Notes under the pieces: model-generated
What the model was told of the DNA's origin: nothing
Seen by the model: only the letters and a program-made list of their open reading frames with translations
Database searches by the model: none
Part shown: piece after piece, positions 21,317-52,541 of the stretch
Numbering within the stretch: position 1 is the stretch's first letter
How the letters are laid out: each line of letters opens with the position of its first letter
Made by a program: the position numbers and the translations under genes
Assembly (NCBI GenBank): GCA_018221135.1
Contig: JAAOYB010000009.1
Location: forward strand, 1 to 56,477
DNA: 56,477 nucleotides
Direction of reading: 5' to 3'
Origin: Candidatus Woesearchaeota archaeon
Lineage (GTDB): Archaea > Nanobdellota > Nanobdellia > Woesearchaeales > BM511

Positions 21317-21328
21317 AAACTTTTTTTT
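21315..21328. terminator. Putative bidirectional terminator between the convergent recJ-like and giant genes
   Basis: AAAAACTTTTTTTT fills the 10-nt gap between two convergent stops. Confidence 0.5.
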
Positions 21329-24300
21329 ATGTTAGTTCTGTGTAGAAATCAACAGTTGAGTAAACTCCTTCATGATAATCACGCAGAAGAGCCGGGAAGT
21401 AAACTTCGTAATCATAAACTCCGTATTCTCCTACTAAGTCTTGGTTGATTTTTGTTATGAACAGAACATCTTGGCTGCCATCGTATTCTAATCCGCCATC
21501 GCTGTAATCCCATAAAATACCAGTTACGAAATTGTCATTGATGGTGCTGTTAACAATTGCTACGTTACTAAGGTTCTTATAATAAATATTAAAATTGCTT
21601 GTTTGCTTAGGCAAACCACCAAGGGTGTAAGTGGTGTTGACACCATCAACGAAATTAGTCATGTTAAGCTCGGAATCCAACTCTTCAAAATCATTATTAA
21701 GACTAGAACTATTATCAATTCTTCTGCCAAGACTTTGTAAACTACTAAAATCTATGTAGCTACCAGTCTCAACCACGAAGACATTACCTGTAGGGTTAGA
21801 GTAATCCCATCCACTAACTGTTTCATTAGATGCCTTAGCAAGGGTTATTGTGCCACTAACATTGCCAAAAGTCAAACTCCAAGCAGGAACATTAACAGTA
21901 TTATAAGCCTTATTATTAGTTTCGTCAGTCTCAACCACGCTACCATTCGTACTCAGTGGAGGGTCAACAACTACATAAATATCAATCGGGCCGGGTCGTG
22001 AGATAATGAAACTAGTATTAACCGTGGCGTTAAAACCATATCCTAAGTAATTAATTGTTTTATTAACCCCTATTTGGACGCCTCCTAAGTCAGGGTCGCC
22101 ATCAAAGAACTGAACCTTAAAAGGAATAGTTGCATTAACGTTTCCGACATTTCTAATAGTTGCGTTAATAGTTATGTTTTGAGCTTCTCTTGGACTCGAA
22201 TTGCTAAAGAAAATGTCGTTACTAAGTATTTGAAGATCTGGGTTGGTGATGTTAACTGAGTAGTTATTTGATGCCCATCCACTGTTTCCAGCAACATCAA
22301 AACATTGAACATTCCAATTATAATACCCTTCATCTAGGTAAACAGTGAAATTATTTAACACGTCGCTTATAGGAGATGTGTTTGTCTTGTTAGATGCCCA
22401 ACTCCCATTGAAATCTCCCCAGATAGTACAATTATTAAGGTTTGCGTCGTCAGGGATGTATTGGAATGAGACGTCTCCTTTGTTTCTATAATCTTCGTCT
22501 TCAGGGTTGACTAACACAACTGTGGGAGGTGTTAAGTCCTCTGTGTATTTTAGATATATCTGGATGAAATTTGTACCATAGTATTTGTTTGCCGCGTCTC
22601 CTCCTGAATAATACCATCTGGCTCGAAGCTCAATACCATTATTTATTTGATTAACAGTTGGGAAACCTCCTGAGGTCTCATTAAACTCGCATGAAAAAGT
22701 ATCATAGCTTGGAGGTGTTGTATCTGTTAAGGTGGATTGCTGACAAATCTGTTCCCAAGAAGAACTGCTTGTATTGTACCAGTACATTTCATAGAAACCT
22801 AGAGAGTACTCTTGGTATTTTTGGTGTGTTAAATTCATCCAATGAATCGTTGAACCAGCAGTTATACTAGGATTTGAGAAATTAAAATACGCGTAGTCTT
22901 CTGTGTCTTGCTTGTCAACCCAGCTGTGTTCTTGATACAACGAGTCCGAGACATTGATTAATGAAGTGTTGCACGTCCCTGTTTCTTGAGAACAACTAAC
23001 AGGGTATATTTGGGGGTAGAATTCGTTTATGAAAACAGTGAAGTTCCAAGTCTGCGACCACCCAACATGATTTGCTGTGTCAGTGCAACTCACATTCCAA
23101 AGATAAAATCCATTATCAAGTGAGTAAACGTTGAAGAAGTTCTCACCTTCTGTTAATATATCTTTAGAATTATTGAGTGTTCCATTAAGGTATAATGAAC
23201 AATTGCTTACTACTCCTGTGTCTGTGACGTTAAAATAAAGTGTTACGTCTCCATCAATGTCTGTGGACTCTGGAGGTGGACTAGTTAAATTAATAGTTGG
23301 CGCGTAAGTATCATTAACAATTAATACATGTGATTCATAACTCGAAGTATAATTTTGAGTAGCAGGGCTACTTAAGTTTATCACGTATTGACCAGGCGTG
23401 CCAAAAAAAGAATTGTTATTCAAAGGACTAGTACCATTATTGATTAATAAGTCATCGATGTAGAGCAACAAGTAACTCTCGCCTGATACGAGGTACCCTG
23501 TTAGGTTAGCGTAACTTGACTCATTAATTGAATAATCACTGTCTGTTCCGTTAATTAATAAATTAACAGAGGAAGATGCTTTGTTAACGGTGTAGGTAAA
23601 ACTGTTTGTCCAGTTTAAGTTACTCTCGCTGTCGTTTGCGTACATCTTCCAAGAATAAGTCCCTGCAGCGATAGGTCCATAGTTGTAATAATAAATATCG
23701 TCTGTTTTCCCTATTATTGAATAATTGTGTGTTGAGCCGTTGAAGTTGTGCTCTACCCAAACAACGTCTATTATTCCGTTGTCTGTCCAAGAAACATTGA
23801 ATTGGTAGTTTTGTATGGGTGAATAATTAATTGGGCTACTCGGATAAGCAACCGGGTTTGACCAATTCGGTGGTGTTTGATCTGTTTGAGTTGTAAAAAA
23901 ATATTCAATGCTTTGATTTGTGTTACCTGCGGAGTCTGAAGAGTTCACAACGTAATAATAAGTAGTTGAAGGCAAAAGACTAGTAACGAGTACGTTATGT
24001 GAAGTTACTAGTGTTAAATCTGATTTGTTAAGAGTGTAAACACCTGTGATTAGTCCGTATTTTACAAGTGACGTCGCTGGTTCATCAGTAGTCCAGGTAA
24101 TATTAACTGATGAATCCGTTATTGAGACGTTAGCGACATTAGTGATAATGGGTGGTGTTACGTCTCCTGATTCATTAGTAGTCGCGGTGTCATTAGCCCA
24201 AAATCCTTTGTTTCCAAAAACATCTACTGGTCGTAGTTGAATCTCATAAGTCGTGTTAGAAGAGAGACTAGTTGCGTTGTAATACTCGATTCCAGCTGAG

Positions 24301-26597
24301 AGGTTTGTTTTAAACAACCCACTAACCCATACTTCTACGTGGTCTAAATCTCCATAAAACGTGGGGTTCGTCCAATTCCATAAAATCCAGGCTTCTCCTG
24401 TTAGTGTCTCGTTAAGATTAGTAATATTATTAGGTGGCGTTACGTCTTTTACATATATCCAAAGAGTTTTTGACGTCGCCGTGTAGTTTTGATTGCCAAG
24501 ATAAACAGCTGTTACGTTAAGATCTCCATGATTATTATAACTAGAAATATTGATAAGTGGTGATGGACCACTTTGGACTAGTGTGCCGTTAACGTATAAT
24601 AATATGTTTCCTTGTCCAGCAGCGAGCACGGCGGTGATGTTTACGCTTTGAGTCTCATTGATAGTGATGTTGTCTTGGCTTGAGTTAAGATACAAGTTAA
24701 TAACGCTGCTTGCTTTGCTCACAATGTATGTTTGGTTTGGCATAGAGTAATTCCAATTGTTTGAAGTGTCGTTAGCAATCGTTCTCCAAACATAACTACC
24801 AACACCTAAGGCTCCATAGTTGTAATAGTATGCGCTTCCACTATTTCCTGTTATAGGATATTGTTGATAAGTCCCTGTGAAGTTGTGTTCTATTAATACG
24901 GTGTCGACTTGTTCGTTATCAAGCCAAGTAGTGTTGAACTGATAACTAGCACTAGGACTATAAGTGGCTGGGCTTGACGGATTCGTAGTTGGACTTGACC
25001 AATAAGGAGCTATAGTGTCTCTAATTGAGTAATTAATGTAGACCCAGACATGGTCTATGTTACCCGTCGCGGATTTCTGAGCGTCTGTCGTTGCGAGTCT
25101 TATACCAAAAGTGTCATATCTTGATTCATCATCGCTTACTGTATTAAAATATGAGATGCAATCCCATGTGTGATCTAATTCTGATGTGCTCATGGTTTGC
25201 CCTGAAGCTGTTCCCCAAGTATCACTTGAGTAGTTACCAAGCTGCAAATTCCAAGTGTTGCCTTCGCTATCCCACGCTTTTACGTGAATTACGCATTCAA
25301 CTATTTCATCAATAAGATCGGTTTCGTCTGGGAAACTAACTCTTAATGGAGAATTACCATTTCCTTTATCAAAAGGCAAGTAGTTTGTGTCATCGGTTTG
25401 GATGCTTGAGAGCTCACCCGCAGTGCAAGTCGCGCCGGCGTCTTCGTTAAAACAACCATCCGCGTTGTAGGAGCTCTGAGCATACGCAGGGTCATTAGGA
25501 GTGATTGTGATATTATATTTTTCTCCAGGAACCATATCTAGTATTTTATCCCAAGTCCCATGACAAGTCTGAGTTGAGAAATTCCACTCAGCGCACTTAT
25601 ACAATTCATACCCAACAGCTACGAATTCTATGCTGCCATTTACGAAGCTTATTCTTTCAGGATCAATAGCAAAAGCACTTTTTATCCTAACCCCCGGGAC
25701 ATCTGCTTTTTCTACGGGGAGTTCTTCTATACCCAAATCAAAGCCGTTGCTTAAGTTAACATTGTTAAACCTAATTTTTTCTACGAATTTCTTTTTTGGG
25801 ATGAGATCTAATTTTTTGGCGAAGCTATTAACGCTTCTAGCACCACTAAGAAAACTATTGAACTTATCAAATTCATCAATTATAATGTCAGAATCCAAGA
25901 AGTATCCTTTACTGTTTTTTATCTTTGCAGACAAATATGTTTTCTCAATATTACTGAAGTCATTGTTTAAGCTTTGACTAAAATAATAATTACTTATCCC
26001 AAAATTCTTAGGTGTAACGCTCGTTCTTCCTACTGTAAAACTAAGGTTTCCTAATAAAAGATTATTATAATCATATACTAAGACTTCGTATATTCCTTCT
26101 TTGGATGGTACGAAGCGAGTTAGGCTTCTTATATCTCCGAGGAATTTGTAATTTTGGTTATTTGTCTGAATTACTAATGAGCTTATATCATTAGGGTTAT
26201 TTATTGTGATATCAACGTTTTCATTTACCAAGTACCTATTTTTATCTAATCTCACAATATCGTGGTTTTTGTTAGTTGTTCCAACAACAAAGCTTTTATC
26301 TTCGATTAGGGAGTCATCACTGATATTTTTTAATATGATTGAATATTCATCATTGTTTTTTGGAATGAAAAAAACACCGCTACTATAATCACCTAAGAAC
26401 TTGTAATACTCTGTTTGTGAGCTGATAACAAGATACGCGTCTCCGTGATTAATTCCTTCTATTTTTATATTGACAACGTCGTTAACTGAATATGAATCTT
26501 TTTCTAATACCAAAAAATCTGCGTTTACAAAAAAAGAACTAGTTACCACTAATAAAAAAGTCAGTAATAACTTCATACTAGTATTTGTTTTTCTCAT
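21327..26597 (-). CDS. Giant secreted surface protein (1756 aa): shared N-module, FN3-like domains, Cys-pair Ig-like modules, CARDB, shared C-module
   Basis: N-terminal signal/anchor MKLLLTFLLVVTSSFFVNA. Two FN3-like segments (for example ITNVANVSITDSSVNITWTTDEPATSLVKYG). Two W-N-V-x-C modules. CARDB-like segment about 21900-22250 ending in ETDETNNKAYN. Very high density of N-x-S/T sequons. The start overlaps the upstream stop (ATGA). Confidence 0.85.
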   Translation of the reverse strand: MRKTNTSMKLLLTFLLVVTSSFFVNADFLVLEKDSYSVNDVVNIKIEGINHGDAYLVISSQTEYYKFLGDYSSGVFFIPKNNDEYSIILKNISDDSLIEDKSFVVGTTNKNHDIVRLDKNRYLVNENVDITINNPNDISSLVIQTNNQNYKFLGDIRSLTRFVPSKEGIYEVLVYDYNNLLLGNLSFTVGRTSVTPKNFGISNYYFSQSLNNDFSNIEKTYLSAKIKNSKGYFLDSDIIIDEFDKFNSFLSGARSVNSFAKKLDLIPKKKFVEKIRFNNVNLSNGFDLGIEELPVEKADVPGVRIKSAFAIDPERISFVNGSIEFVAVGYELYKCAEWNFSTQTCHGTWDKILDMVPGEKYNITITPNDPAYAQSSYNADGCFNEDAGATCTAGELSSIQTDDTNYLPFDKGNGNSPLRVSFPDETDLIDEIVECVIHVKAWDSEGNTWNLQLGNYSSDTWGTASGQTMSTSELDHTWDCISYFNTVSDDESRYDTFGIRLATTDAQKSATGNIDHVWVYINYSIRDTIAPYWSSPTTNPSSPATYSPSASYQFNTTWLDNEQVDTVLIEHNFTGTYQQYPITGNSGSAYYYNYGALGVGSYVWRTIANDTSNNWNYSMPNQTYIVSKASSVINLYLNSSQDNITINETQSVNITAVLAAGQGNILLYVNGTLVQSGPSPLINISSYNNHGDLNVTAVYLGNQNYTATSKTLWIYVKDVTPPNNITNLNETLTGEAWILWNWTNPTFYGDLDHVEVWVSGLFKTNLSAGIEYYNATSLSSNTTYEIQLRPVDVFGNKGFWANDTATTNESGDVTPPIITNVANVSITDSSVNITWTTDEPATSLVKYGLITGVYTLNKSDLTLVTSHNVLVTSLLPSTTYYYVVNSSDSAGNTNQSIEYFFTTQTDQTPPNWSNPVAYPSSPINYSPIQNYQFNVSWTDNGIIDVVWVEHNFNGSTHNYSIIGKTDDIYYYNYGPIAAGTYSWKMYANDSESNLNWTNSFTYTVNKASSSVNLLINGTDSDYSINESSYANLTGYLVSGESYLLLYIDDLLINNGTSPLNNNSFFGTPGQYVINLSSPATQNYTSSYESHVLIVNDTYAPTINLTSPPPESTDIDGDVTLYFNVTDTGVVSNCSLYLNGTLNNSKDILTEGENFFNVYSLDNGFYLWNVSCTDTANHVGWSQTWNFTVFINEFYPQIYPVSCSQETGTCNTSLINVSDSLYQEHSWVDKQDTEDYAYFNFSNPSITAGSTIHWMNLTHQKYQEYSLGFYEMYWYNTSSSSWEQICQQSTLTDTTPPSYDTFSCEFNETSGGFPTVNQINNGIELRARWYYSGGDAANKYYGTNFIQIYLKYTEDLTPPTVVLVNPEDEDYRNKGDVSFQYIPDDANLNNCTIWGDFNGSWASNKTNTSPISDVLNNFTVYLDEGYYNWNVQCFDVAGNSGWASNNYSVNITNPDLQILSNDIFFSNSSPREAQNITINATIRNVGNVNATIPFKVQFFDGDPDLGGVQIGVNKTINYLGYGFNATVNTSFIISRPGPIDIYVVVDPPLSTNGSVVETDETNNKAYNTVNVPAWSLTFGNVSGTITLAKASNETVSGWDYSNPTGNVFVVETGSYIDFSSLQSLGRRIDNSSSLNNDFEELDSELNMTNFVDGVNTTYTLGGLPKQTSNFNIYYKNLSNVAIVNSTINDNFVTGILWDYSDGGLEYDGSQDVLFITKINQDLVGEYGVYDYEVYFPALLRDYHEGVYSTVDFYTELT

Positions 26598-29500
26598 TTT
26601 ATCTCAGCGTAAAACGCTACTGCGCTAGTGTCTGGTGTTTTGTATTCTCTAAGCGCTGCGGGGACTTTTATCTCAAAATCATACGTTCCGTTAAAACCTA
26701 TTTTGTTTTCGTTAACCTCTGTTACGAATACTAAGTCTTGGGTTCCGTTATACTTTGGTCCGTCGTTTGAATCCCACAAAATCCCAGTCAAAAAATTGTT
26801 GTTTACAGTGCTGTTAATAACAGGCACATCATAGATGGTGCTTGTGAAAATAATGTAGTTCTTAGTGTTTTTTGCGCTGCCGCTTTGCGTGTAAGTATTA
26901 TTTATTGAATCAGTATAATTAGTCATGTTAAGAGCTGTGTCTATCTCTGCGAAGTCATCGAACTCAGAAGAGTTAGAAGTGTTTTTACCAATAGCGAGAA
27001 GGCTAGTCCAAGAAACACTACTATCATAATCAGCTACGAATAAGTTATCACCAGTACTGTTAGCTTTATTCCAACTAAACAAAGTATTATACGCGGAGTT
27101 ATCAATGTTTAATATCGAAGTGGTATTACCTGCGAATACGTGGTGACCACTGATAGTTATTGCTTTGTAAGCCTTATTATTAGATTCGTCACTTTCAGTT
27201 ATGGAACCATTTGATGCGATTGGTGGGTCCACTACAACGTATATCCTGGTGGTGCCCATCTTTGTAGTCCAATTAACACTAAGGGTTTGGTTGCTACCAA
27301 CAACTAAGCTATTGATTGTTTGATTAACCCCTATCTGAACTCCAATGGTGTCAGGGTTTCCTTGCCAGAACTGAACTACGAAGTTATTTGCTGTTGCTCC
27401 TCCAACATTATAGATATTAGCGAGGACTGTTATGTTCTCACCTTCAACAGGATTATTATTGCTAAAACTAATATTGCCTGCGTTTATTACTAAGTCCGGC
27501 GCGGGTACTGTGAAGTTATAAGTAAGACTAGTATTGGTGTTTCCTGCTAAGTCAACACAAGTAACATTCCAATAATGGATTCCTGCACCCAAACCAGGAA
27601 CACTAATATTAGCCCAACTACCACTAGTGATGTTTGTAAATGATTGGTTATTGTTTGAATCAATAGTTAAGTTACAAACTGATAATATTGGTGCCATGTT
27701 ATCACTAACTGTGAAGTTAAAAAACACGGTGTCATTATTTGTTAAGTTATCATTCTCGGGAGCTGTTAGGGTAATACTTGGGAGAACTGTGTCTACGTAG
27801 ATAGTGATTGGTGTAGAGTTATATTTATTAGTTGCTTCGTCTACTGCTTCTAATACTACACTCCAACTACCATTAGTCAAAGCGTTTAGGTTATCACTGT
27901 CAGGCGTGTTGTTATTTGTTGTGCCGCTAGCATTAAGCGTGCTATTAACGTACAAGTAATAATTTAGTACTAAGTCCATGTTATCAGTTACCAAGAAATT
28001 AATAAGTGGAGACGCCGTGTTAAACCAAGACTCATTTTTAGTGGTGATATTGGCAAAAGAAGGGGTTAAATCTATGTATAAGCTTCTGTTCTCATCACCG
28101 AATCCTTGAGAATAAAATGTTGTGTTGTCAAAACAAGTAATGCTCCAATTATAGCTTCCTTCAAAGATTTCGCTAGTAATATTATTAGTGGCGTTATTAG
28201 TTATTTGGCTTCCGGGCTTACTCTGATTAAAGTTTCCATCAATTAATAAGCTGCAATTCTCGATTCCTGTCTCGTCACTTACGTTAAAGTAGAATGTTAT
28301 GTTTCCATCATTAAACCAACTATTTGTTGGAGGCGTGACTAGTGTTATGTTAGGAGCCCTAAACACGTTAAAAGTTTTGGTCTCACTAACATTAAAATTG
28401 GTTGCTTCATCAATGCAGGTCACGTTCCAACTATGAACTCCTTCAAAAAGATTGTTCGCTGTGTGGTTTCCGTAACTATTATTAGAAATGTTCTGTGAGT
28501 AAACTTGGCTTCCATCAAGGGTGATGTTACACAATATCGGGTCGTCCAAGTTGTCAGAGACGGTGAAATTAAGAGTTGCGCTGCTACTAGTAATGTTTGC
28601 TTGGTCGACTGGATTAGTAAGGTTAATGGTTGGTTTTGTGATATCAACTATTATTACAAGAGTATAATTAGCGATGTTATTAGCTTCATCTAATGTCTCG
28701 ATGGTTACGTTATGGTAACCCTCGCTTAATGGCCCGATTGTTTGATTAGTGTTGGTGTTATTAGTTATGTTAGTACTAGTAATAAAGCCTTGATCAACAT
28801 ACAAGGAGTAGTTGATGTTGTCATCTAAGGCATCGGTTATGTTAAAAATAATGTTAGGGGTCGTAGTATTAAACCACGAATTGTTCTCTGCTTGGTAATT
28901 AACCACTGCACTGGTATTATCTATGTACAGTGTGATAGTGTTGGAATCTTTTGTTCTGTTAAGATAATCAGTTACTCTAATAGTAATTAACCTAATGCCT
29001 TCGTTTAGAGTTGAGAGATTTAATAATTGGGAGACATTATCAGTTACGCTTCCATTTTGCCCATTAGGCACTCCGTTAACTAAGACCGAGTAATTAATGC
29101 TACTATTAGTGTAGTCATATAATGTGAAGTTAATAAGTGGTGTTAAGTCACTAGTCCAAGTAGGGCTAGGGGGGCTTGTCAGATTAGCCCATAAAACGCT
29201 TATATTGATAGTCGCGTTATTATTAGAGTAGTTAGTCTCGAAGACTCCTAAGTCTGGGTTGACAACGCCATAAATAGAATAATAACCTTGATTTATAATC
29301 CATGTAGTGTTGACTGTGTTTGTCTGCCCAGGACTAAGTGACAGGCTTATATTATTTCCTATCTGGACCCCTATTCCAGGTGGTCCTTGCCAGAACTGAA
29401 CTAAGAAGTTACTACTACCAGAAGCCCCGTTGTTTGTTACGTTAAGATAAATCGTTAAGTTCTCACCTAAGTCTGGGTTGCTGTTATTAAACCAAATCCT

Positions 29501-32500
29501 AGTATTATCTGTGTATAAATCAGGTGCTTCCACGGTGAAATTCCAAGTAGAGGTGGTGTTGTAGTTTCCAAGGTCATCCCAGCAAAGCAGACTCCAATTA
29601 TGCGAGCCATAAACAAGGCCGTACACGGTGTGATTATGATAATCTCCGCTACTAAAATTAAGGTTAGTCGCGTTAACTGCTCCATCAACTGTTAAGTTAC
29701 AATAAACTATGCTTGACCAAGTATCATTAGCTGTCCAATTAAAATTCACGTTCTCGGTAGGAACAGTGATGTTGTCCCCGGGGTAGGAGCGGTTTATGGT
29801 TGGGGGGTACAAGTCAACTATCAATGTTTTTGTTGTTTGATTGGTTCCTTCTAATCCGTATGCGTCTGTGCAGTTAACAGTCCAATTATATATTCCATCA
29901 GCGAAGTTGTAAGCAGTTATGTTATTCTCAACTCCCACACTTATGTTGTTGTTAGTCTCATTTCTTAATCCGTTAAGTATGAGTGTGCAGTTGCTTATGT
30001 TATTACTATTATCGTACGGTGTGAAAAAGAAGGTTATGTTCTTCTCATTAGTTCTGTTGTTGTGTTGTGGGTTGCCTAAGTTTATCCTTGGCGGCTCATT
30101 TACTGTGAAGTTATAAGTAAGACTAATATTGGTATTGCTTGCTAAGTCAGTACACGTGGCATTCCAGTAATGCAATCCATCACTAACATTGTACTCTGTG
30201 TGGTTAAAATATGAGCCATTTAACACCACTGTTGGTCCGGCTATTACGTTACTATCAAGACTAATATTACAAGTTGTGTTAGGCGCTAAGTTATCCCATG
30301 CTGTTAAGTTAAAGAGTATTGTGCTAATATTAAAGACGTCGTTATCAGGAGTTATCAAGTTAATAGTTGGGTTTGTTAAGTCCACAGTAAAATTCCAGGT
30401 TTCCGTGCTGTTAACAGTGTTATTATCCCAGTCCGTGCAATCCCAATACCAAGTGTGAAATCCTTCACTAAAACCATTTTCTGTCCAACTATCAATTTGG
30501 TTTGCGTTAGGATACCTCTCTATACTGTAATTCACGCTGCCATCTAGGTATAAATGACAATACTGCAAAGTAAGATTATTATCTTCGGGGAGGTAATAAA
30601 AAGTTACGTTACCTGTGTTATTCCAACTATAAGGAGGAGGAGCGATTAATGTGACTTCTGGAGTGAAACTAACATTGAAGTACCAAGTCTCACTAGTAGT
30701 GCTTAGTTGGCTTGAGTCAGTACACTCAACACTCCAATTATAACTTCCTTCACCAAAATCATAACGGCTAATATTGGTCCAATTGCCACTAGTTGCGTTA
30801 ACAGTTATGTTGAATTTCTCGTTTATGTATAAGTCACAAAGCAAAGTTTGTGTTATCTCATCATACGCTGTGAAATTAAAATTGATAGTTGTTGTGTGAA
30901 TAGTGTCGTTTTCTTCAGGGAAGGTGAGATTAACCCATAACGGCGCGGTTTTATCAACGTAAAACCATTCCAAACTACTATTACCAACGCTGTTATTAAC
31001 ATCAGTGCAGTTAACACTCCAATTATAAAGACCTTCAGCTAAGTTATCCCTGGTAAAATTACTAGTGCCCCCATTAGTTATGTTAATAGTGCCTTGTGTG
31101 TATTGATAAGCATCGTTAAGATATAATGAACAGTTTTGTATTCCTCCAACGTCTGTAGCGTTGTAATAAAAAGTGACGTTCGAATCATTTTTTCCTTCAT
31201 AACTTATAGGTTCTACTAATACAACGTAGGGCTCGATATCCACGCTGAAATTAAGATTAACGCTCGTCCCGTTCCTATTCGCGTCATCTGTACAAGTAAT
31301 ATTATAGTAATGAACACCGTTGGATAATCCACCTACGAACCTAGTATTATTAAATACTCCACTAGCATTAGCAAAGAAAGGACCACTAACCCCATAATCC
31401 GAGATGTTTATAGTACACTCAACGATTTCATCAACGGCGTCGTAAACATTGAATTCAAAAAATAACCACGAATTATAAATAGTTGACGCATTAGGATACT
31501 TGGGAGTAATAAAAGGATCATTAAAGTCTACGCTGAAATTAATAACGCCAGGTTTAGTGCTTTGTGAAGAGTTATCAAAGCACTCAACAGTCCAATTATG
31601 AATTCCTTCTGAGACGTTATACAACGTAAAATTATTAGTGACTCCGCTTGTGATGTTAGTACTGTTATCACTTGGTGCGTCATCTAAGAAAATAGTGCAA
31701 TTAGCAATTCCGCTACTATCAATTGGGGTGTACTCAAAGGTTATGTTCTCAACTAAGACCCAATCCCCTTCTGAAGGGTATTCGAGATTAATAGTTGGCC
31801 CGGCGTTTAAGTGGAAAACCCAAGTACTATTACTAATATTTGTTCTGCCAAGACGATCACTGCACGTAACATTCCAATAATAATCATTATCTGTAAGACC
31901 AAACAAAGTGTAATTTCTAATAGTGTTATTAGGACTTATAATATTAGGATAAAAATCTGAATTAATTCTTAAATCACAACTAAGATTATCTGTTAAGTCA
32001 TCAGTTGCGTTCCACTGAAGCGTTACGGTGCTGCTATTAATTGTGTTGTTATCACCTGGGTAGATTAAGTTAACGTTTGGGTCTGTTTCATCAACCCAGA
32101 AAATCCAATTCTTACTCCAACCAGTACCTGCTCCATTAGTACAACTAACATTCCAAGTATGATTGCCTTCGTTTATATTGGTTACGTTGAAATAGTTGTA
32201 CTGGTTTACTTCGATAGCACTATCATTACCTTTATTGTTTCCGTCTACGTAGATGCTACAATTATCTATTCCTGAGTCATCAGTTGCGTTGTAAGTAAAC
32301 GTGCCGTTTTCGCTTAGGAAGCCACCAGTGTAGTTCTGGGGGTTTACTAATATTGGCAGTGGTGGTCCTTGGACTGTGAAGTTCCAAGTCTGACTGGTGT
32401 CAAGCCATCCCGCGTCATCCCAACAAGTTACATTCCACCAATGCAATCCATTAACAACTGTTCTAATATTAGATTCTATGGTGTTGTTGATTACATCAAG

Positions 32501-38392: not shown

Positions 38393-38399
38393 AAAGAAA

Positions 38400-43388: not shown

Positions 43389-43892
43389 CTAATATATTGT
43401 AGAATTACTAGCGGTTCTATTATATAAAAGTGACGAAACAGAGTCAGTAGTGAAAAGCAATATGAACTCTCCTTTAATATCGCTGTTTTTGATATCAAAA
43501 CGTACCTTTATGACCATAAACTCAGAGAAGCCCTCAAAATGAAGTAACATATAATCTTGAAGAGTCCTACCATACGTGCTAATCACATTAGGCGGATCAA
43601 AAGTGATCTTTTTTTGAAAGAACTTAGCAAAACTGCTAAGGTAACTACTATAAATTGCAATGCCAACTTTTTGCATAAGACGCTTATCAGTATCATCAAG
43701 TTCACCTCCTTTTCTTTTATGCTCAGGAGCAAAAGTCCAAGTGATATTAAGCGCTGATTTTGTAGGGATAATAGTAAAAGTCTTTCCTTCCATGCCCTCT
43801 TTTATCTCACTAAGAATACCAACTACGATTCCATAAGGATCTGGAAGCAATTTCTTTATCATAGTTATATTACTAAAACTTAAATCAGGCAA
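43389..43892 (-). pseudogene. N-terminally truncated CheC-like paralog (catalytic motif lost, only a TTG start)
   Basis: Most positions are identical to residues ~50-215 of ORF 44547..45212. Homology continues upstream of the TTG in the same frame (SKIFSKRVNIGLPDL versus SNIFKKRVNITLPDL) until an in-frame TAG. The D-x3-E-x2-N segment is absent. Confidence 0.55.
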
Positions 43893-44437
43893 GCCGATAT
43901 TGACTCTCTTACTAAAAATTTTTGATTGACATCTAGAACTATACCTTTTCTAGTAATTGCTATACCTTCAAATGCTGCTTTGTAAAATGTTGAGAGACGC
44001 TCCTCGCTTTCCATTAAATCTTTTTTTGTTTCTATTTCTTTTATGATATCAATAGACGAACCAATCATGCCTATCTCTTTTCCGTTCTTATCTTTTAACA
44101 TCGATAAAAGAAGCCTGACAAAAACTGTTTCTTTATTCTTCTTAACTAGCCTAACAATTTTTTGATGTAACCCTTTTTCTTTCAATGGTTTTATGATTTC
44201 ATTAACTAATAAATCACGATCTTCATCCAGATAGAGTATACTAATATGTTCGCCAATTATTTCTGAGGATTTATAGCCAAAAAGGTTTTCTGAGCGTTTA
44301 TTCCAACTTAATATGTTTCCTTCCAAATCAGTTGAGATTATCGCGTCTTGAATCTGGTTAAGAAGTTGTTCGTTAAACCATTTTTTTGAACTTGGCATTG
44401 ACTCGTTTTTTTTTCTCAGATTTCCTTTTGTACACAT
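43880..44437 (-). CDS. PAS-domain protein, C-terminally truncated inside a second PAS domain
   Basis: One complete PAS domain runs from IISTDLEGNILSWNKRSENLFGYKSSEIIGEHISILY to KNGKEIGMIGSSIDI. A second PAS then begins at FYKAAFEGIAITRKGIVLDVNQKF. The frame next runs about 14 codons out of frame into CheC-like sequence and stops. Confidence 0.6.
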   Translation of the reverse strand: MCTKGNLRKKNESMPSSKKWFNEQLLNQIQDAIISTDLEGNILSWNKRSENLFGYKSSEIIGEHISILYLDEDRDLLVNEIIKPLKEKGLHQKIVRLVKKNKETVFVRLLLSMLKDKNGKEIGMIGSSIDIIKEIETKKDLMESEERLSTFYKAAFEGIAITRKGIVLDVNQKFLVRESISACLI

Positions 44438-45235: not shown

Positions 45236-45250
45236 ATATATAAAACTTTT
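45236..45250 (-). promoter_or_regulatory. BRE/TATA box for the CheC-like gene, overlapping the cheW stop
   Basis: The reverse complement reads AAAAGTTTTATATATG. Its proximal end is 24 nt upstream of the start at 45212. Confidence 0.45.
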
Positions 45251-45873
45251 TAATCCAATTCAGCTTTTTTACTCACTTCATGAATTTCTTTAATCTTACT
45301 AATATTCTCTAATTCTTCAACGCCAAGAATATGCGCGAAATCAACAACTATTATCAAACGATCATCACTAACAACAGCGACAGAAAGCAAATAATCACCG
45401 CCAACCCTATCCTTAATGATCTTAGGAGCATCTTGGATTTTATCAATGCCTATACGTAACACTTCTGTGACGCTATCAACAACAAAACCAATAACGCCAT
45501 TACCAATCTCAGTGATTATAATCCTGCTATAACTATCAAATTTTTTAGAATTCAACCCCAACTTCTTATCTAAGTCAACAATAACAATTACTTCACCCCT
45601 AAGATGAATAATCCCGCAAATATAAGTATCAGTTTTAGGAATGTTAGTAATCGCGCCAGCCTTTATAATCTCTTTAACACTATGGATGTAAACACCGAAT
45701 TCTTCATTTTCTAGATTAAAAATTACTAATTGTTTTTCCTCGCTACTTTTTTGTTTTTCAAAACCGAAATCAAACCTATCAAAACCCTCATCAATTGGTT
45801 TAGATTGAGAACTTGGTTCTTCAGGTGGGGCTTTGTTGTTTAGATTGTTCATCTTTCTCAGCTTTACTGACAC
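45250..45873 (-). CDS. cheW: CheW coupling protein with a short N-terminal extension
   Basis: 207 aa with the CheW core [54 protein letters not shown]. The start overlaps the MCP 3' end. Confidence 0.8.
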
Positions 45874-47296
45874 CTATATGTGGGAGAGGTGCGGGGTGCG
45901 GTGGTGGCATGGGATTCTTTTGAGGAACCTCGATATACCCAGAACCAATACCTGTGTTTGCCGTTGTAGTTGTTTGTGCAATTCCCCCAACATTAAATCT
46001 TCTAACAATGTTTTTTAAGTTTTCAGCGTCAGCGCTAAGAGTCTGAGCAGCGCCAGCCATTTGCTGCATACTACTACTAATCTCCTCTACGCTAGCAGTT
46101 GTTTCCTCACTTGAAGCAGCGCTTTCCTCAGCAACGCTAGTAACTTCATCAATAGCTTTTTGAACTTTTTCACTCCTATCAAGTTGAGCTTTAGTAGCGG
46201 CGTTGATCATCTCTACCTGGGCAGCGACGTCATTAGCCCTACTACTAATAATCTCCAAGCTACTAAGAGCATCATTAACTACTTTGCTACCCTCAGAGAC
46301 TTCTGTTGTACCAGTTTGCATAGCTGCAACAGCATTATTAGTACTAGTGATTATGTCTTTGATCATAGCTTCGATTTGCTTAGTTGCTTGCTGGGTTTCC
46401 TCGGCTAGTTTTCTTACCTCATCAGCTACTACTGCGAAGCCCTTGCCTGCTTCTCCAGCCCTAGCAGCTTCGATTGCTGCGTTAAGAGCTAATAGGTTTG
46501 TTTGCTCGCTAATACTATTAATAACCTCGATGACTTTATTGATTTCCTGAGTTTTTCCGCCAAGCTCATTTATTAAACCACTTGAAGAAATCACGGCTTC
46601 GCTTATAGCCTTCATCTTAGTAGAAGCGCTCTTAGCCGACTCCCCACCTATAGCAGCTGCTTTTTTGGATTCCTCAGCGATGTTAGAAGCTGACTCGCTA
46701 CTACTAGCAACGCCTTTTATACTACTAATGAGTTGATCTACTTCGTTTTTCGTATCAGTAGCTGACTTGCTAAGCTCCTGTCCTCCTTTAGCAATTTGTT
46801 GCACCGTGCTACTAACTTGTTCTGTAGAAGCATTGATTTGCTGGCTGCTAGCAGAGAGTCTCTCAGCTGCTTTAGCGCTGCTCTCAGCGCTCTTAGTAAG
46901 ACCGGCAACGATTTGTTTTAAGCTATCAACCATCTTAGAAAAACTCTTAAAAATGCTTCCGACTTCGTTACTACCATATTCGTCTTCTATATCAATCATT
47001 AATTGGCCGTCAGAGACTTTATCCATTAAACTAACTATTTTAGTGAAACTACCTGTTAATACTCTACTAAAATAATTTGCTACTAAGAAACCAACGATTA
47101 TAGATAAAGTAGTAACTATAAATATTATGGTTCTTATCTTTCCAAGACTACTCGCCAAATCATAACTACCTTGAGCTTTGATACTAATATAGATAGTGCT
47201 TCCAAGAACGATTAACGGAATAGAAATCATGAGTATGAAAGCAACTATTAGCTGAGTATTTATACTAGTGTCTCCTATTTTTTTTTCAAAACTCAT
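45821..47296 (-). CDS. Methyl-accepting chemotaxis protein (2 TM, minimal loop, HAMP, signalling domain, Pro-rich tail)
   Basis: It has the invariant hairpin motif [38 protein letters not shown]. The start ATG at 47296 (MSFEKK) is preceded by GAGGTGG. The ORF-track extension to 47812 overlaps cheY on the other strand. Confidence 0.85.
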
Positions 47297-48309: not shown

Positions 48310-49344
48310 ATGTCTAGAAACAAAATACTTTTTTTTGACGATGACAATGAACTAGTTTTACTCATAAAAAAATATTATGATAAACTAAACTTTGATATGG
48401 TAACAAGCGAAGAAGAATTCAAAGAGAAAATAAAAGATAAAATCTACGATGTTTCTTTAGTAAACCCTAATATGTATGATAAAGAAATATCGACTTTAGT
48501 AAGGTTGTTAACCTCTAAAAAGATTCCTTGTGTGGTAATTCTTGATAAGTATTATGACATAGAAAAAATAATTGATGCTTTATCAGTAGGCGCTATTGAT
48601 TACTTTATGAGACCTTTTATCGGAAGGTTATCTTCTGCGGAGAAAGAAAAAGTAACAATGAACATCTTTGATAAAATAGTGGTGGCTATTAACTCAAAAG
48701 AATCATTATCCGAAGTTGATTCAGTCGAACACAAAAAAAGCGATTTCACATTTGATTTTAGAAGCGCGACAAACAAAATAATAGTGATAGGGAGCTCGAC
48801 AGGCGGACCTCAAAGCCTTGAGAAAATAATACCTTTGATCCCTGGAGAAATACCTTCACCAGTAATAGTGATTCAACACATGCCAGAAGTTTTTACCAAG
48901 AAATTCGCTGAGCGCCTAGACACGGTATGCGAATTAAGAGTTAAAGAAGCAGAGAACTCAGAAGAACTACTAAACGGTGTTTGCTACGTGGCAAAAGGAG
49001 ATTATCACTTAGTACTAAAAAAGGATTCGAAAGGAAAAATAATAATTAATCTTAACAAAAAAGAAAAAGTTTTAGGTGTTAGGCCATCAATTAATATGAC
49101 TATGGAATCAGCAGCTACGCATTATGGGAAAAACACAATAGGAATAATACTTACAGGAATGGGAGCCGATGGAACTATTGGCTCAAAAAAAATAAAGGAA
49201 TCAGGAGGAACAATAATCGTGCAGTCAGAAGAGACTTCAGTGCTTTACGGGATGCCTAAAAGCGTTTTTGAAAAAGGTTATTATGACGAAGTCGTAGACT
49301 TACAAAAAATACCTGTTGCGATACTCCAAATACTAGAAGTATAA
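48310..49344 (+). CDS. cheB: CheB methylesterase with a degenerate (non-phosphorylatable) receiver domain
   Basis: The catalytic domain is intact (IGSSTGGPQSL, VIQHMP, GMGADG). In the receiver, the phospho-acceptor position reads DVSLVNPNM where D is expected, and the conserved T/S and K positions are also changed. Confidence 0.8.
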   Translation: MSRNKILFFDDDNELVLLIKKYYDKLNFDMVTSEEEFKEKIKDKIYDVSLVNPNMYDKEISTLVRLLTSKKIPCVVILDKYYDIEKIIDALSVGAIDYFMRPFIGRLSSAEKEKVTMNIFDKIVVAINSKESLSEVDSVEHKKSDFTFDFRSATNKIIVIGSSTGGPQSLEKIIPLIPGEIPSPVIVIQHMPEVFTKKFAERLDTVCELRVKEAENSEELLNGVCYVAKGDYHLVLKKDSKGKIIINLNKKEKVLGVRPSINMTMESAATHYGKNTIGIILTGMGADGTIGSKKIKESGGTIIVQSEETSVLYGMPKSVFEKGYYDEVVDLQKIPVAILQILEV

Positions 49345-49394: not shown

Positions 49395-51350
49395 TTGAGT
49401 AGCGAAGAATACAAAGACATGTTTCTTGCTGAGGCAAGAGATCACATGGACAGTCTTAATCAAGAATTAGTAAAACTAGAGAAATCACCAGGGGAATCTA
49501 GTATTATAAATAATGTGTTTCGTTCTTTTCACACCCTTAAAGGAAACAGCGCTACTATGGGGTATGAGGTGTTCTCAAAATTAGCACATAAACTAGAAGA
49601 CATGCTTGGTTTGCTTCGAGATAAGAAACTAAAAGTAAACGATGACATCATGGATATCTTGTTTAATGGCTGCGACGCTTTAGAAGATGGAATGCAAAAA
49701 ATAGAGGATAACAACCCAGAAAACTTGAGTGTTGAATCATTAATTAAAAGAATCGATGAATTCTCTCCTTCCGCCAAGAAAGAAGCGGACGAGAAAAAGA
49801 AGATAGAAAACGATGCGCAACTTACAAAAAAAGAAAAGGCGCTTTTAAAAAAGAAGAAAATCAAAGAAGATGACCTCTCACGTTTAATAATAGAGTTCGA
49901 AGACAACCCATTAAAAAGCGCTAAGGCACTAACTATAATTAAGAAGTTAGAAGATGATAAAACAAACACTATAATACGTCTTACTCCTTCAAAAAAAGAT
50001 GTTACTGACCACAAGATTCAATTTAATAACTTAGAAGCGATTCTGTACTTAAACGATAAAGAAAAAACGACTAAGGACATAAATGGTGTTAGCAAAATAA
50101 AGAATTTCTTGTTGTTTGGAATAAATGAGAGTTATGAAGAAGAATCAAAAGAGTTAAACAAGACAAAAATAGTGGACGCGCACAAAGAAGAACTTAGAAA
50201 AGTACAAGAAGTAAGAATAGATATATCTCGTCTTGACAAATTAATGGATATGGTGGGTGAACTACTCATTTTTAAGATGAGATTAGAACAAATAAACAAA
50301 GGGCTTATGTCCAAAGAGTTAGAAGAAGTAACAAAAAGCATTAGTTTTCTCACTCAGAACATCCAAAACGAAGTAATAGAAGAAAGAATGATCCCTTTAG
50401 GTAACGTTTTTAGCAGGCTTCCAAGAGTTGTTAGGGACCTCTCAAAAGAAGAAGGAAAAGAAATAGATTTCATAATGCAAGGAGAAGACAACAAACTAGA
50501 CAGAACAGTCATAGATAAAATAACAGATCCCTTAATTCACATTATAAGAAACTGCGTTGATCACGGAATAGAAACCCCTAGTTCTAGAAAGAGTCTTGGA
50601 AAAGAAGAAAAAGGAGTTATAAGACTAAACGCTATCAGGGAAAAAAACCAGGTAGTAATAGAAATCGATGATGACGGAGCAGGCATAGACCCAGATAGGC
50701 TAAGAGACAAAGCCCTAAAAAAGAATGTGTATCCTCAATCAGAGATAAACGCTATGAGCGAAGACCAATTACAAGAACTAATCTTCTTGCCTGGTTTCAG
50801 CACTAATGACAAAATAGATGCGATCTCTGGCAGAGGAGTAGGAATGGACGTCGTCAAAAGCAACGTAAGCCAAGTAGGTGGCAGCGTACACGTAAAATCA
50901 AGAAAGGGAGAAGGAACAAAAATAAAGATAACACTTCCATTAACAGTAGCGATAATAAGCGTACTCATAGTAGAAGTCAAAAACGAGAAATACGCTATGC
51001 CTCTTACTAACGTTAAAGAAATAGTGAGCTTAACAGAAGAAAAAATCAGGACTATCCAACACAGAGAAACATTTATTCTTAGAGGAGAAGACATACCAGT
51101 TCTTAGACTACGAAACCTGGTAGGAGAGGGAAATGATGAAAAAGAAAACCAGATGACAGTCATAATATTTGATAGCGGCCCCAGAAAAATAGGTGTCGCA
51201 GTTGACAAAATAGATAGTCAACAGCAAATACTTATAAAGGAGTTAGATGATAATATAAAGAAAATAAAAGGAATCGCTGGAGGAACAATCCTTGGCGACG
51301 GAGAAGTTTGCTTCATACTCGATATTGATAGCTTAGCAGAACTAAACTAA
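49395..51350 (+). CDS. cheA: CheA histidine kinase
   Basis: HPt site FRSFHTLKGNSATMG. HATPase motifs HIIRNCVDHGIE, DDGAGID and GRGVGMDVV. C-terminal CheW-like domain. The TTG start is preceded by GAGGTG. Confidence 0.9.
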   Translation: MSSEEYKDMFLAEARDHMDSLNQELVKLEKSPGESSIINNVFRSFHTLKGNSATMGYEVFSKLAHKLEDMLGLLRDKKLKVNDDIMDILFNGCDALEDGMQKIEDNNPENLSVESLIKRIDEFSPSAKKEADEKKKIENDAQLTKKEKALLKKKKIKEDDLSRLIIEFEDNPLKSAKALTIIKKLEDDKTNTIIRLTPSKKDVTDHKIQFNNLEAILYLNDKEKTTKDINGVSKIKNFLLFGINESYEEESKELNKTKIVDAHKEELRKVQEVRIDISRLDKLMDMVGELLIFKMRLEQINKGLMSKELEEVTKSISFLTQNIQNEVIEERMIPLGNVFSRLPRVVRDLSKEEGKEIDFIMQGEDNKLDRTVIDKITDPLIHIIRNCVDHGIETPSSRKSLGKEEKGVIRLNAIREKNQVVIEIDDDGAGIDPDRLRDKALKKNVYPQSEINAMSEDQLQELIFLPGFSTNDKIDAISGRGVGMDVVKSNVSQVGGSVHVKSRKGEGTKIKITLPLTVAIISVLIVEVKNEKYAMPLTNVKEIVSLTEEKIRTIQHRETFILRGEDIPVLRLRNLVGEGNDEKENQMTVIIFDSGPRKIGVAVDKIDSQQQILIKELDDNIKKIKGIAGGTILGDGEVCFILDIDSLAELN

Positions 51351-51380: not shown

Positions 51381-52007
51381 ATGAAAGACTTACTAAACCT
51401 TAACGACATGGAAAAAGACGCGTTAAAAGAACTCGGAAACGTAGGGACCGGTAACGCGGCAACAGCGCTTTCCCAATTACTTAAAAGACACATCGAAATA
51501 ATAATCCCGGAGACAAAATTCGTGCCTATAGAAGATTTCACAAAAGAATTTGGAGGCCCAGAAAAAGTTGTTGTCAGCACATACTTAGAAATAGGAGGAG
51601 ACCTAACAGGAGAAGCCTTATTCTTATTTCATATTAGCTCAGCTGAGAAATTAGTGGATGTGATGATGAACCAAAAACCGGGGACGTCTAAAATAATGGA
51701 TGAAATGGCTCAAAGCGCGTTTAAAGAGATGAGCAACATCTTTACAGGAGCGTATCTTAATAGCATAGCAGACTTTTTAAAAGCCAGGCTACTCCCTGGC
51801 ATACCTCACATAACAATTGACATGCTTCAATCAGTCATTGATTTCGTACTAGCAAAGGTCAGCAATTACAGCAACGAAATACTTTGTATCAAGACAAGAA
51901 TAGAAGTAAAAGACTTACAGATAGAAGGAGATTTCGTCTTGTTTTTTGATATTGCTTCGATGAACAAATTACTAGCCACGCTAAAAGAGATGTTTGGAAC
52001 AAGCTAA
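51381..52007 (+). CDS. cheC: CheC phosphatase, both active sites intact
   Basis: DALKELGN followed by 22 residues then P, and SAFKEMSN followed by 22 residues then P. It lies immediately upstream of cheD. Confidence 0.85.
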   Translation: MKDLLNLNDMEKDALKELGNVGTGNAATALSQLLKRHIEIIIPETKFVPIEDFTKEFGGPEKVVVSTYLEIGGDLTGEALFLFHISSAEKLVDVMMNQKPGTSKIMDEMAQSAFKEMSNIFTGAYLNSIADFLKARLLPGIPHITIDMLQSVIDFVLAKVSNYSNEILCIKTRIEVKDLQIEGDFVLFFDIASMNKLLATLKEMFGTS

Positions 52008-52040
52008 AACAAAAAGAAAGAATAAAAAATTAATAAAAAG

Positions 52041-52541
52041 ATGGATGACGAAATAATAGTTGGCATCGGAGAATTATTAGCGGCTCACAACCCAGTCACT
52101 CTTAGTTGTCTTGGTCTTGGAAGTTGCGTAGCCGTTGCGCTAATAGATAAAGATTCACATGTTGGCGGCTTAGCTCACGTAATGCTCCCTGATAGCAAGG
52201 CGTGCGCTCTTCGAGTAAACAACGATAGAGACGCGAACATATTAAACAAATACGCAGACGTAGCCATATCTAAATTAGTTGAGAAAATGGTAAAAAAAGG
52301 CGCTAACAAGAATCACATAATAGCTAAAGTTGTTGGTGGCGCCAGGATGTTTCAATACTGCAATTCTGAGAGCATGGATATAGGAAGAAAAAACATAGAG
52401 ATAATAAAAAGAATACTTTACGATAAAGGAATACAAATAGAAGCTGAAGACATAGGCGGCACGCATGGTAGAAGCGTTAGGTTCAACACCGCAACGGGTA
52501 AACTAGTAATAAAAAGTATCGACGCACAAAAAGAGTTATAA
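52041..52541 (+). CDS. cheD: CheD chemoreceptor glutamine deamidase
   Basis: 166 aa with CLGLGSCVAVAL and GGLAHVMLP motifs. Confidence 0.85.
   Translation: MDDEIIVGIGELLAAHNPVTLSCLGLGSCVAVALIDKDSHVGGLAHVMLPDSKACALRVNNDRDANILNKYADVAISKLVEKMVKKGANKNHIIAKVVGGARMFQYCNSESMDIGRKNIEIIKRILYDKGIQIEAEDIGGTHGRSVRFNTATGKLVIKSIDAQKEL

Follow-up and report, generated by a model that had tools for sequence, protein, structure and literature searches.

What does a chemosensory pathway control when its genes lie side by side with a KaiC-type ATPase and giant surface proteins? The question is raised by contig JAAOYB010000009.1 of a Candidatus Woesearchaeota archaeon, analysed here over 56,477 nt (the window, ~35% GC), a stretch whose proteins have their nearest relatives in metagenome-assembled genomes (MAGs) labelled Candidatus Woesearchaeota and whose source organism is a tiny, probably symbiotic archaeon. 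We propose, with about even confidence, that a complete Che pathway is coupled here to a KaiC-type switch controlling giant surface proteins, in a supercluster conserved among Woesearchaeota of the DPANN archaea.

Twelve open reading frames (ORFs) run head to tail on the minus strand from 47296 down to 21327, encoding, in this order, a methyl-accepting chemotaxis protein (MCP), CheW, a CheC-like protein, a PAS ORF, a CheC fragment, an inactivated KaiC-like protein (iKaiC), a winged helix-turn-helix (wHTH) protein, a KaiC ATPase, a bitopic coiled-coil membrane protein, a second wHTH protein and two secreted proteins of 3684 and 1756 aa (Table 1). The run diverges from cheY-cheY-cheB-cheA-cheC-cheD on the plus strand. 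An earlier note on this DNA had described the twelve co-directional genes, the divergent che genes and short gaps with several start/stop overlaps; ORFs and Pfam assignments bear out both gene sets, and the gaps, from the 1756-aa gene to the MCP gene, measure -4, -4, 191, -32, 81, 175, 55, -13, 109, 37 and -53 nt. Its picture of one uninterrupted locus holds for the gene run, which is continuous, but less so for its transcription, as BRE/TATA-like motifs (BRE, transcription factor B recognition element) inside the run probably divide it into several transcription units.

Conserved linkage, gene overlaps and a CheC subfamily, here termed CheC*, that is encoded only ahead of iKaiC argue for joint action of the Che pathway and the KaiC module. 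The layout is common to at least nine related genomes, and on this ground swimming is probably not the output of the sensing pathway, or not its sole output.

Conservation of the gene cluster in related archaea

Searches were anchored on KaiC or iKaiC, with an alignment of the former run against species-representative genomes and one of the latter against metagenomes (related loci are numbered with the prefix L). Homologues of the window ATPase, KaiC702, form a small Woesearchaeota family, found in two kinds of module. In type A, CheC* and iKaiC are followed, with optional genes in-between, by a wHTH protein, a long KaiC and a coiled-coil membrane protein of ~470-510 aa. This core is present in at least nine other Woesearchaeota-type contigs, mostly within a che cluster and mostly followed by giant Ig-repeat genes (L002; L008/L007; L010/L169/L170, from one organism; L011/L001; L013; L014; L168; L171), with partial copies in L009 and L172. 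Identity to the window proteins is 55-63% for the KaiC domain, 45-66% for iKaiC, 32-63% for the wHTH protein and 23-37% for the coiled-coil protein. Where the sequence upstream of the wHTH gene is visible, CheC*-iKaiC occupies it in nine of 10 loci, with a full che set in six; in the exception, L012, a giant gene and an integrase take this place, and che genes are lacking.

The surroundings of the core vary considerably. L008 (PKTL01000064, Woesearchaeota BM511) is a near gene-for-gene match to the window, including the divergent cheD-C-A-B-Y-Y. L168 (JAZDLQ010000017) and L169 carry everything on a single strand, in the order cheY, cheB, cheA, cheC, cheC, cheD, cheR, CheC*, iKaiC, wHTH, KaiC, coiled-coil, a 706/724-aa protein and a closing giant of 3640 or 2277 aa. 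L090 and L092 follow an alternative order, namely giant, 1660-aa protein, CheC*, iKaiC, cheD, cheR and MCP, and the outer flanks are wholly different from locus to locus. Since the che operon is one-stranded in some loci and divergent in others, and gene orders vary, the linkage has survived several rearrangements. At the level of single junctions, five loci show an overlap of 1 or 4 nt between the CheC* and iKaiC genes, and the wHTH-KaiC and KaiC-coiled-coil gaps of type A loci are short or negative. Among metagenome matches to iKaiC of at least 45% identity, a CheC gene lies directly upstream in all five (5/5); among more distant matches with at least 600 nt visible upstream, it does so in 2 of 50.

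The giants recur as well. Of the 11 loci in which the region beyond the coiled-coil gene is visible, eight encode large secreted proteins there, L171 being ambiguous. ORFs of at least 1000 aa are found in 16 of 22 loci of the closest KaiC family and make up 27.5% of bases, compared with 4-6% in three comparison sets, a rough control as these sets come from other lineages.

Type B, which may open with one or more giants, has a short KaiC of 316-402 aa and then a secreted protein (~1280-1490 aa) in which a transmembrane (TM) segment is often predicted near residue 1130-1150. A ~455-aa relative of the coiled-coil protein and iKaiC come next, in many cases with a Ser/Thr or His kinase. Type B occurs in L003/L004, L016-L021 and L024, often with one or two giant Ig-repeat genes ahead, and in L019 it is preceded by a wHTH187-like gene (see below) and two giant genes. 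No Pfam domain was detected in a 457-aa type B protein. In L011 (13506-21183) and L013 (13000-20752) type B lies directly downstream of type A, and the che genes in its vicinity belong to the adjoining type A module. Further afield, strings of histidine kinase (HK), receiver (REC), iKaiC and KaiC genes are present in the distant DPANN contigs L114, L119, L126, L140 and L149, and L111 and L131 hold che clusters ending in CheC and iKaiC, L131 also in KaiC. L173 (1-13350) and L174 are likewise distant DPANN contigs of the HK/REC/iKaiC/KaiC type; in L173, the genes for KaiC, iKaiC, a PAS histidine kinase, REC and TrmB have as neighbours those of a Laminin_G protein of 1135 aa and of a protein of 12781 aa.

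The adjacency of Che, KaiC and giant genes, for which the earlier note had asked for a test in relatives, hence recurs in many diverged Woesearchaeota-type contigs despite changes in che orientation. From these gene arrangements we conclude that the juxtaposition is not a coincidence.

Components of the module and promoter-like sequences

In our proposal, CheC* links Che to KaiC. The window protein, CheC221, passes the Pfam CheC model (PF04509) with 54.6 bits against a cut-off of 22, and it and its 11 orthologues (12/12) keep exactly the first D/S-x3-E-x2-N-x22-P site, so that none of them shows the two-site pattern of canonical CheC. The CheC of the cheD-adjoining type, by comparison, keeps both sites in the window (CheC208) and in L008, L011, L168 and L169. 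A third CheC gene of the window, CheC194 (194 aa, 107-691, minus strand), adjoins nucS and a partial tRNA (1-79) ~44 kb off the che cluster and also has both active sites intact.

Downstream of CheC221, the PAS ORF, with one full PAS domain and the start of a second, terminates 13 nt inside the next ORF of 167 aa. The latter is 65% identical to residues 52-212 of CheC221 and corresponds to a second CheC* that lacks its N-terminal quarter, which agrees with its earlier description as a CheC-like fragment. The two ORFs are out of frame and join at an A5T5 run, CAAAAATTTTTAG, near 43917-43926; one added A in this run (...GIVLDVNQKIFSKRVNIGLPDL...) would join PAS and CheC* in frame, giving a protein of ~350 aa whose gene would immediately precede that of iKaiC. 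The frame break may stem from an error in sequencing the homopolymer, from slipped-strand phase variation or from the decay of a gene fusion.

The 183-aa iKaiC matches DUF7504 (PF24336; 47.6 bits, cut-off 27) and more weakly KaiC (29.4 bits). In line with its description in the earlier note as a P-loop-less KaiC-like protein, GxxGxGKT is missing from it and from all sequences in an alignment of 22 orthologues, in which a Walker-B-like FDSLSTLLIY is conserved.

KaiC702, by contrast, is an intact ATPase of the KaiC type, as had been claimed. It reaches 163.9 bits against the Pfam KaiC/RecA-like model (PF06745; cut-off 26.6), and GGPGSGKTT, LEE and VLDSLS are invariant in 13 orthologues, i.e. Walker A, Walker B and the catalytic Glu pair are all in place. 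Its best PDB matches are the KaiC CI domain and PH0186 (KaiC in PDB, E 9e-50), and an exact-sequence look-up matched no record. KaiC702 is not the circadian KaiC proper, having one KaiC domain rather than tandem CI/CII and falling short of the NCBIfam KaiC models (124 bits, cut-off 408; 91.5 bits, cut-off 546); no KaiB-type domain was detected by Pfam in any scanned ORF of the window. Identity with ArlH/FlaH was similarly rejected, with 25.2 bits for NF052589 ArlH (cut-off 215) and 36 bits for PRK06067 FlaH (cut-off 194). The Pfam GvpD_P-loop model is narrowly passed (25.2 bits, cut-off 24).

Ahead of the ATPase domain, KaiC702 has a DUF5752-like N-terminal domain (residues 1-100, model pLDDT ~90) and a Pro-rich linker, with residues 102-280 disordered in the model. 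Foldseek with the full model matched only the RecA-like domain and returned nothing for the N-terminal domain. According to an iterated hidden Markov model (HMM), KaiC orthologues bear one to three copies of this domain, three in L010 and L011. Two type B surface proteins, of 1477 aa in L017 (10795-15276) and 1493 aa in L018 (10777-15210), also end in this domain, in L017 beyond a TM segment predicted near residue 1140. Further copies, in L017 1-5105 and L018 1-2044, are carried by several small stand-alone proteins and, at residues 893-982 and 1041-1124, by a 1126-aa open frame at the L017 contig edge. The same HMM found no match in the coiled-coil protein of the window, in the window giants or in most type B proteins.

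The two wHTH proteins, wHTH178 and wHTH187, are paralogues. The AlphaFold model of wHTH178, based on 22 homologues (pLDDT 91.4), shows an N-terminal winged helix (H4-13, H22-29, H33-46, E49-54, E57-62), a long helix and an alpha/beta domain, and Foldseek places it with the MarR/ArsR-type proteins MepR, MexR, AspA and Sso10a-2 (probability 1.0, E 2e-3 to 1e-2), confirming the winged-helix fold that the sequence had suggested. Neither protein has a Pfam, NCBIfam or PDB sequence match or belongs to a named HTH family. The family nevertheless comprises 443 representative clusters at 50% identity with E up to 1e-3 (247 with E up to 1e-10), almost all members being stand-alone proteins of 160-200 aa. 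In all type A loci, the wHTH178 gene is the immediate upstream neighbour of KaiC. The wHTH187 gene, whose stop overlaps the start of the 3684-aa gene by 4 nt, has counterparts at the same position in L008, L007 and L019.

In the coiled-coil protein, cc503, a signal peptide is followed by ~310 aa of helical ectodomain, and a single TM helix leads on to a charged coiled-coil tail. The start of its gene overlaps the KaiC702 stop by 32 nt, and a coiled-coil gene also follows KaiC in related loci. No Pfam domain was found in cc503, and a PDB profile search of the coiled-coil family gave nothing meaningful.

Promoter-like sequences suggest how the run may be divided. The BRE/TATA-like motif AGAAAGKTTTATAWA has six matches in the window (0.18 expected), all upstream of genes, and its copies ahead of CheC221, wHTH178 and wHTH187 indicate that the twelve genes probably form four or more transcription units, not one. 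On either side of the copy that precedes the wHTH187/giant operon lie two exact copies of the 16-mer AAAAATAGTATAATAA (38268-38283 and 38369-38384), the upstream one within a perfect 9-nt inverted repeat that is followed by a T run, just past the cc503 stop codon. A 15-mer of AAAAATAGTATAATAA is present in the homologous spacers of L008 (13962-13976) and L007 (4148-4162) and in none of the others of 170 loci. The leader of wHTH178 is likewise conserved in three genomes (window 42607-42720, L008 9295-9405, L002 3450-3557), with a TATA-like box, GATAAC, ~40 nt and then GAGTTATCG just before the start codon, elements that may form an operator pair or an RNA stem. We regard both the AAAAATAGTATAATAA repeats and the wHTH178 leader as candidate operators.

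The giants at the end of the run are paralogues with N- and C-terminal domains in common. The 3684-aa protein has ~20 repeats of 95 aa and 258 N-x-S/T sequons and is 46% identical over ~2600 aa to its L008 and L007 orthologues; the 1756-aa protein is 51% identical to a 1747-aa protein of L020. In both, the signal peptide is the only hydrophobic segment, with no C-terminal TM, and the Pfam domains are of Ig type only (Big_13, MG2, CARDB, fn3-type). Such proteins probably serve adhesion or host contact.

As to the sensing side, the core set of MCP, CheW, CheA, CheY, CheB, CheC and CheD is encoded in the window, CheR being the exception: no cheR was found within the 56 kb, though cheB and cheD are present, and most related che clusters have one or two cheR genes (L005, L001, L168, L169). 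The MCP has two TM helices (hydrophobic residues 10-41 and 50-77) with almost no ectodomain, followed by HAMP and signalling domains. The sequence of the first CheY paralogue shows the acidic pocket as well as the acceptor Asp, the Thr and the Lys, and the second is 70% identical to its L008 orthologue. The REC domain of CheB (48310-48620) remains under the Pfam cut-off (19.7 bits). By eye, its acceptor Asp position is Asn (YDVSLVNPNM) and the conserved Lys is Arg; CheB may thus not be controlled by phosphorylation. A second CheW-domain protein of 394 aa, of a type that flanks the che operon in L008 too, carries an acidic, Pro/Glu/Thr-rich N-terminal extension of ~230 aa with a near-exact internal repeat (ETPTVEEAKIEETPVEA.PTPSE). 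Directly after cheD lies hypF (52568-54757), which also abuts CheC* in L014 (1-798), with no hydrogenase genes in view.

Table 1. Coordinates of the che, KaiC-module and giant genes and of promoter-like elements in the window.
Feature	Position	Strand	Basis
1756-aa secreted paralogue of the 3684-aa protein	21327..26597	-	CARDB, fn3-like domains (Pfam)
3684-aa secreted Ig-repeat protein	26594..37648	-	Big_13, MG2 domains (Pfam)
wHTH187, paralogue of wHTH178, 187 aa	37645..38208	-	26% identity, E 1e-15
Spacer with two exact AAAAATAGTATAATAA copies flanking the BRE/TATA-like motif	38268..38384	-	sequence repeats
Promoter-like motif upstream of wHTH187	38303-38317	-	AGAAAGKTTTATAWA match
cc503, bitopic coiled-coil membrane protein, 503 aa	38400..39911	-	hydrophobic residues 10-37, 350-384
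KaiC702, single-domain KaiC ATPase, 702 aa	39880..41988	-	Pfam KaiC 5e-48, residues 459-694
wHTH178, winged helix and C-terminal alpha/beta domain, 178 aa	42070..42606	-	AlphaFold, Foldseek
Promoter-like motif upstream of wHTH178	42684..42698	-	AGAAAGKTTTATAWA match
iKaiC, inactivated KaiC-like domain, no Walker A, 183 aa	42782..43333	-	Pfam DUF7504 3e-12
CheC fragment, 167 aa	43389..43892	-	homology to CheC221
PAS ORF	43880..44437	-	Pfam PAS_9 3e-15
CheC* (CheC221), one-site CheC-like, 221 aa	44547..45212	-	Pfam CheC 1e-14
Promoter-like motif upstream of CheC221	45237-45251	-	AGAAAGKTTTATAWA match
CheW	45250..45873	-	Pfam CheW 1e-31
MCP	45821..47296	-	Pfam MCPsignal 1e-45, HAMP 2e-9
cheY paralogue 1, 122 aa	47511..47879	+	Pfam Response_reg 1e-27
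cheY paralogue 2, 131 aa	47887..48282	+	Pfam Response_reg 5e-29
cheB methylesterase, degenerate receiver domain	48310..49344	+	Pfam CheB_methylest 2e-61
cheA (Hpt-P2-dimerisation-HATPase-CheW)	49395..51350	+	five Pfam domains, canonical order
Canonical two-site CheC (CheC208), adjoining cheD	51381..52007	+	Pfam CheC 6e-16
cheD	52041..52541	+	Pfam CheD 3e-32
Second CheW-domain protein, 394 aa	55245..56429	-	Pfam CheW 1e-35, residues 240-374

Proposed circuit and alternative explanations

The sequences show which genes are present, what domains they encode, which motifs are intact and that the linkage is conserved; from this we infer the protein contacts, direction of signal flow, DNA binding and adhesin role that make up the following circuit. 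MCP, CheW and CheA would set the level of phosphorylated CheY (CheY-P), which CheC*, having kept one of two CheY-P sites, would read. CheC*, whose gene appears translationally coupled to that of iKaiC, would then act on iKaiC, and iKaiC would join the active single-domain KaiC ATPase and shift its oligomeric or nucleotide state, with cc503 as the operon partner holding KaiC at the membrane. The state of KaiC would in turn be handed to the two paralogous winged-helix regulators, in the manner of GvpD acting on GvpE or CirA on arl transcription, and wHTH187, at the promoter flanked by the repeated 16-mer, would set expression of the wHTH187/3684-aa/1756-aa operon. The net effect would be chemosensory control of heavily glycosylated Ig-repeat surface proteins. 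Most of the steps have counterparts elsewhere: REC-iKaiC fusions are on record (PMC5847659), the KaiC-like CirA reduces transcription of arl (PMC10983859), ArlH, also KaiC-like, connects ArlCDE with the motor of the archaellum (PMC8978795), and KaiC ATPases are associated with type IV pilus loci in archaea (PMC4858521). A more specific version, in which Che has been rewired from a rotary motor to a CheC*/iKaiC/KaiC switch, tied through the membrane partner and the wHTH proteins to giant glycosylated adhesins and serving the control of host attachment, we put forward tentatively, as somewhat less probable than the general proposal. If it holds, an episymbiotic DPANN cell would have its attachment under chemosensory control, and the pathway would be the first in archaea with a chemosensory output other than motility, as well as the first concrete circuit from input to output for a KaiC hub of archaea.

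Several points weigh against this circuit. Linkage is not wiring, and the anchoring of the searches on KaiC and iKaiC gives no share of Woesearchaeota che clusters that bear the module. Neither a CheC-iKaiC nor a REC-iKaiC fusion was found among the iKaiC orthologues, all 47 of which (47/47) are stand-alone proteins of ~180 aa. In L002 and L172, both of type A, the coiled-coil gene is followed by housekeeping genes, and no giant lies downstream. Type B modules, with the same KaiC family, flank giants without a che cluster of their own, so the link between KaiC and giants is broader than the link to Che. The CheC/CheD/CheB gene content is furthermore of the type that controls motility in other archaea. 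Finally, flaB/H/I/J/K are present in most of the published MAGs of Woesearchaeota, one of which expresses CheABCD (PMC11606122). The earlier idea of a Che pathway feeding a KaiC/wHTH module that controls the giants therefore stands in part: conserved linkage and gene overlaps favour it, but giants are not obligatory, and KaiC accompanies them more widely than Che does.

The archaellum deserves separate consideration, as its absence from the 56 kb had been taken as an argument for a non-motility output. The absence itself is borne out: Pfam scans of the window ORFs revealed no archaellin, ArlI/J or CheF domain, and a crude regular-expression scan of the window for class III signal peptides and the T2SSE Walker A gave no match. 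The same crude scans of 20 loci returned no T2SSE Walker A and one class III-like match, in L003, which is a 60-aa antisense ORF inside a giant gene and was taken as spurious. The loci examined carry no arl or type IV pilus (T4P) gene at less than 10 kb from the module, no CheF domain or archaellum gene was found in the related che clusters examined, and arlI, arlJ and archaellin are missing from the annotated flanks of L001, L005, L168 and L169. The argument, however, rests on 56 kb, and most published Woesearchaeota MAGs have flaB/H/I/J/K genes (PMC11606122).

These genes leave room for the alternative that survives best, although we consider it unlikely: CheC*-iKaiC, perhaps with KaiC702, would be the DPANN counterpart of CheF/ArlCDE and pass CheY-P to ArlH/ArlI of an archaellum encoded elsewhere, the giants being neighbours for a different reason such as common cell-surface regulation. 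In euryarchaea the Che signal indeed reaches the motor via the KaiC-like ArlH (PMC8978795) and CheF co-occurs with ArlCDE (bioRxiv 10.64898/2026.04.22.720090); with no CheF seen in these che clusters, a substitute would be needed if swimming were the output. The MAG genes and CheABCD expression cited above, the two type A loci without giants and the automatic JGI names of two iKaiC orthologues ('archaellum biogenesis ATPase FlaH') point the same way. Yet KaiC702 reaches only 25 bits against the NCBIfam ArlH cut-off of 215, arl and T4P genes are missing within 10 kb of the module in the loci examined, and an adaptor role leaves unexplained the coiled-coil partner, the two wHTH genes, the recurrent wHTH187/giant overlap and the type B KaiC modules that flank giants.

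Less likely still is that KaiC and its bitopic partner constitute a complex in the membrane by which the giants are anchored, assembled or mechanically modulated in an inside-out fashion, with Che tuning the activity of this complex after translation and the wHTH proteins merely autoregulating. In its favour, the giants have a signal peptide but lack any membrane anchor, and cc503, whose gene overlaps that of KaiC702, combines its helical ectodomain with a cytoplasmic tail. The N-terminal domain of KaiC at the end of the L017 and L018 surface proteins, which in L017 would be cytoplasmic as it follows the predicted TM segment, suggests a homotypic link from ATPase to surface protein, and in L014 a single 1106-aa ORF comprises both the coiled-coil protein and a giant-like segment. 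Against it, this tail domain was detected in 2 of ~10 type B proteins and in neither cc503 nor the window giants, no ATPase of the KaiC family is known to perform mechanical or export work, and the conserved wHTH genes and operator-like repeats speak for control of transcription.

Least likely is a linkage devoid of function, in which che, KaiC and giant genes are neighbours through common ancestry or as parts of a variable island and exchange no signal. All loci belong to a single DPANN lineage, L012 has an integrase and no che genes, and both KaiC paralogues and giants are plentiful in these small genomes. This reading nevertheless fits poorly. Gene order persists where protein identity is down to 23-45%, the outer flanks are entirely different, che orientation varies with the link intact, L090 and L092 join a giant, CheC*, iKaiC and che genes in another order, stop and start codons overlap, and CheC*, with its own conserved one-site signature, is encoded only ahead of iKaiC.

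Relation to known systems

The archaeal KaiC/iKaiC signalling hubs described by Makarova, Galperin and Koonin in 2017 (cited in PMC5847659) likewise pair a single-domain KaiC ATPase with an inactivated KaiC domain, receiver-type input and HTH output; fusions of REC to iKaiC, DUF835 and MEDS are listed in PMC5847659, and the HK-REC-iKaiC-KaiC strings of the distant loci are of this kind. In the present cluster the proposed input is an entire Che pathway with a dedicated one-site CheC-like partner in place of a fused or adjacent receiver, and a conserved bitopic membrane protein and giant secreted proteins are added. In the euryarchaeal archaellum, too, a bacterial-type Che pathway leads, through CheF and ArlCDE, to a complex with a KaiC-family protein, ArlH, and on to ArlI (PMC8978795), but CheF, ArlCDE, ArlI/J and archaellin are absent from the window and from the neighbourhood of the module in relatives. 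GvpD/GvpE of haloarchaeal gas-vesicle clusters and CirA of Haloferax resemble the module in that a KaiC-like P-loop ATPase, encoded next to genes for a surface or envelope structure, reduces their transcription (CirA: PMC10983859). They have neither Che input nor membrane partner, and here GvpE has no homologue, the regulators being a new wHTH family without a Pfam model. Bacterial chemosensory pathways with outputs other than motility, such as Wsp and Che3 of Myxococcus, follow the proposed logic of an MCP/CheA/CheY core that regulates adhesion or gene expression. They usually end in a response regulator with an output domain and usually lack CheC and CheD, whereas the CheY proteins of the window are single-domain and the proposed output is a KaiC module.

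In the papers searched, neither this cluster nor an archaeal pathway of the latter kind is described. A 2022 survey of 352 genomes reported that DPANN have no chemotaxis system (PMC9680633), and a 2016 analysis saw che linked to no pilus system but the archaellum (PMC4858521). DPANN archaea probably live attached to hosts, and KaiC-like ATPases are the most expanded and least understood of archaeal signalling proteins, phenotypes being known for ArlH, GvpD and CirA only. The cluster adds three protein families lacking a Pfam, NCBIfam or PDB sequence match of their own, namely one-site CheC* (a distinct subfamily inside Pfam CheC), the wHTH family of ~180 aa and the bitopic coiled-coil partner. 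With some ten conserved proteins, Che as its known input and giant surface proteins as a plausible output, it makes the concept of a KaiC hub accessible to testing.

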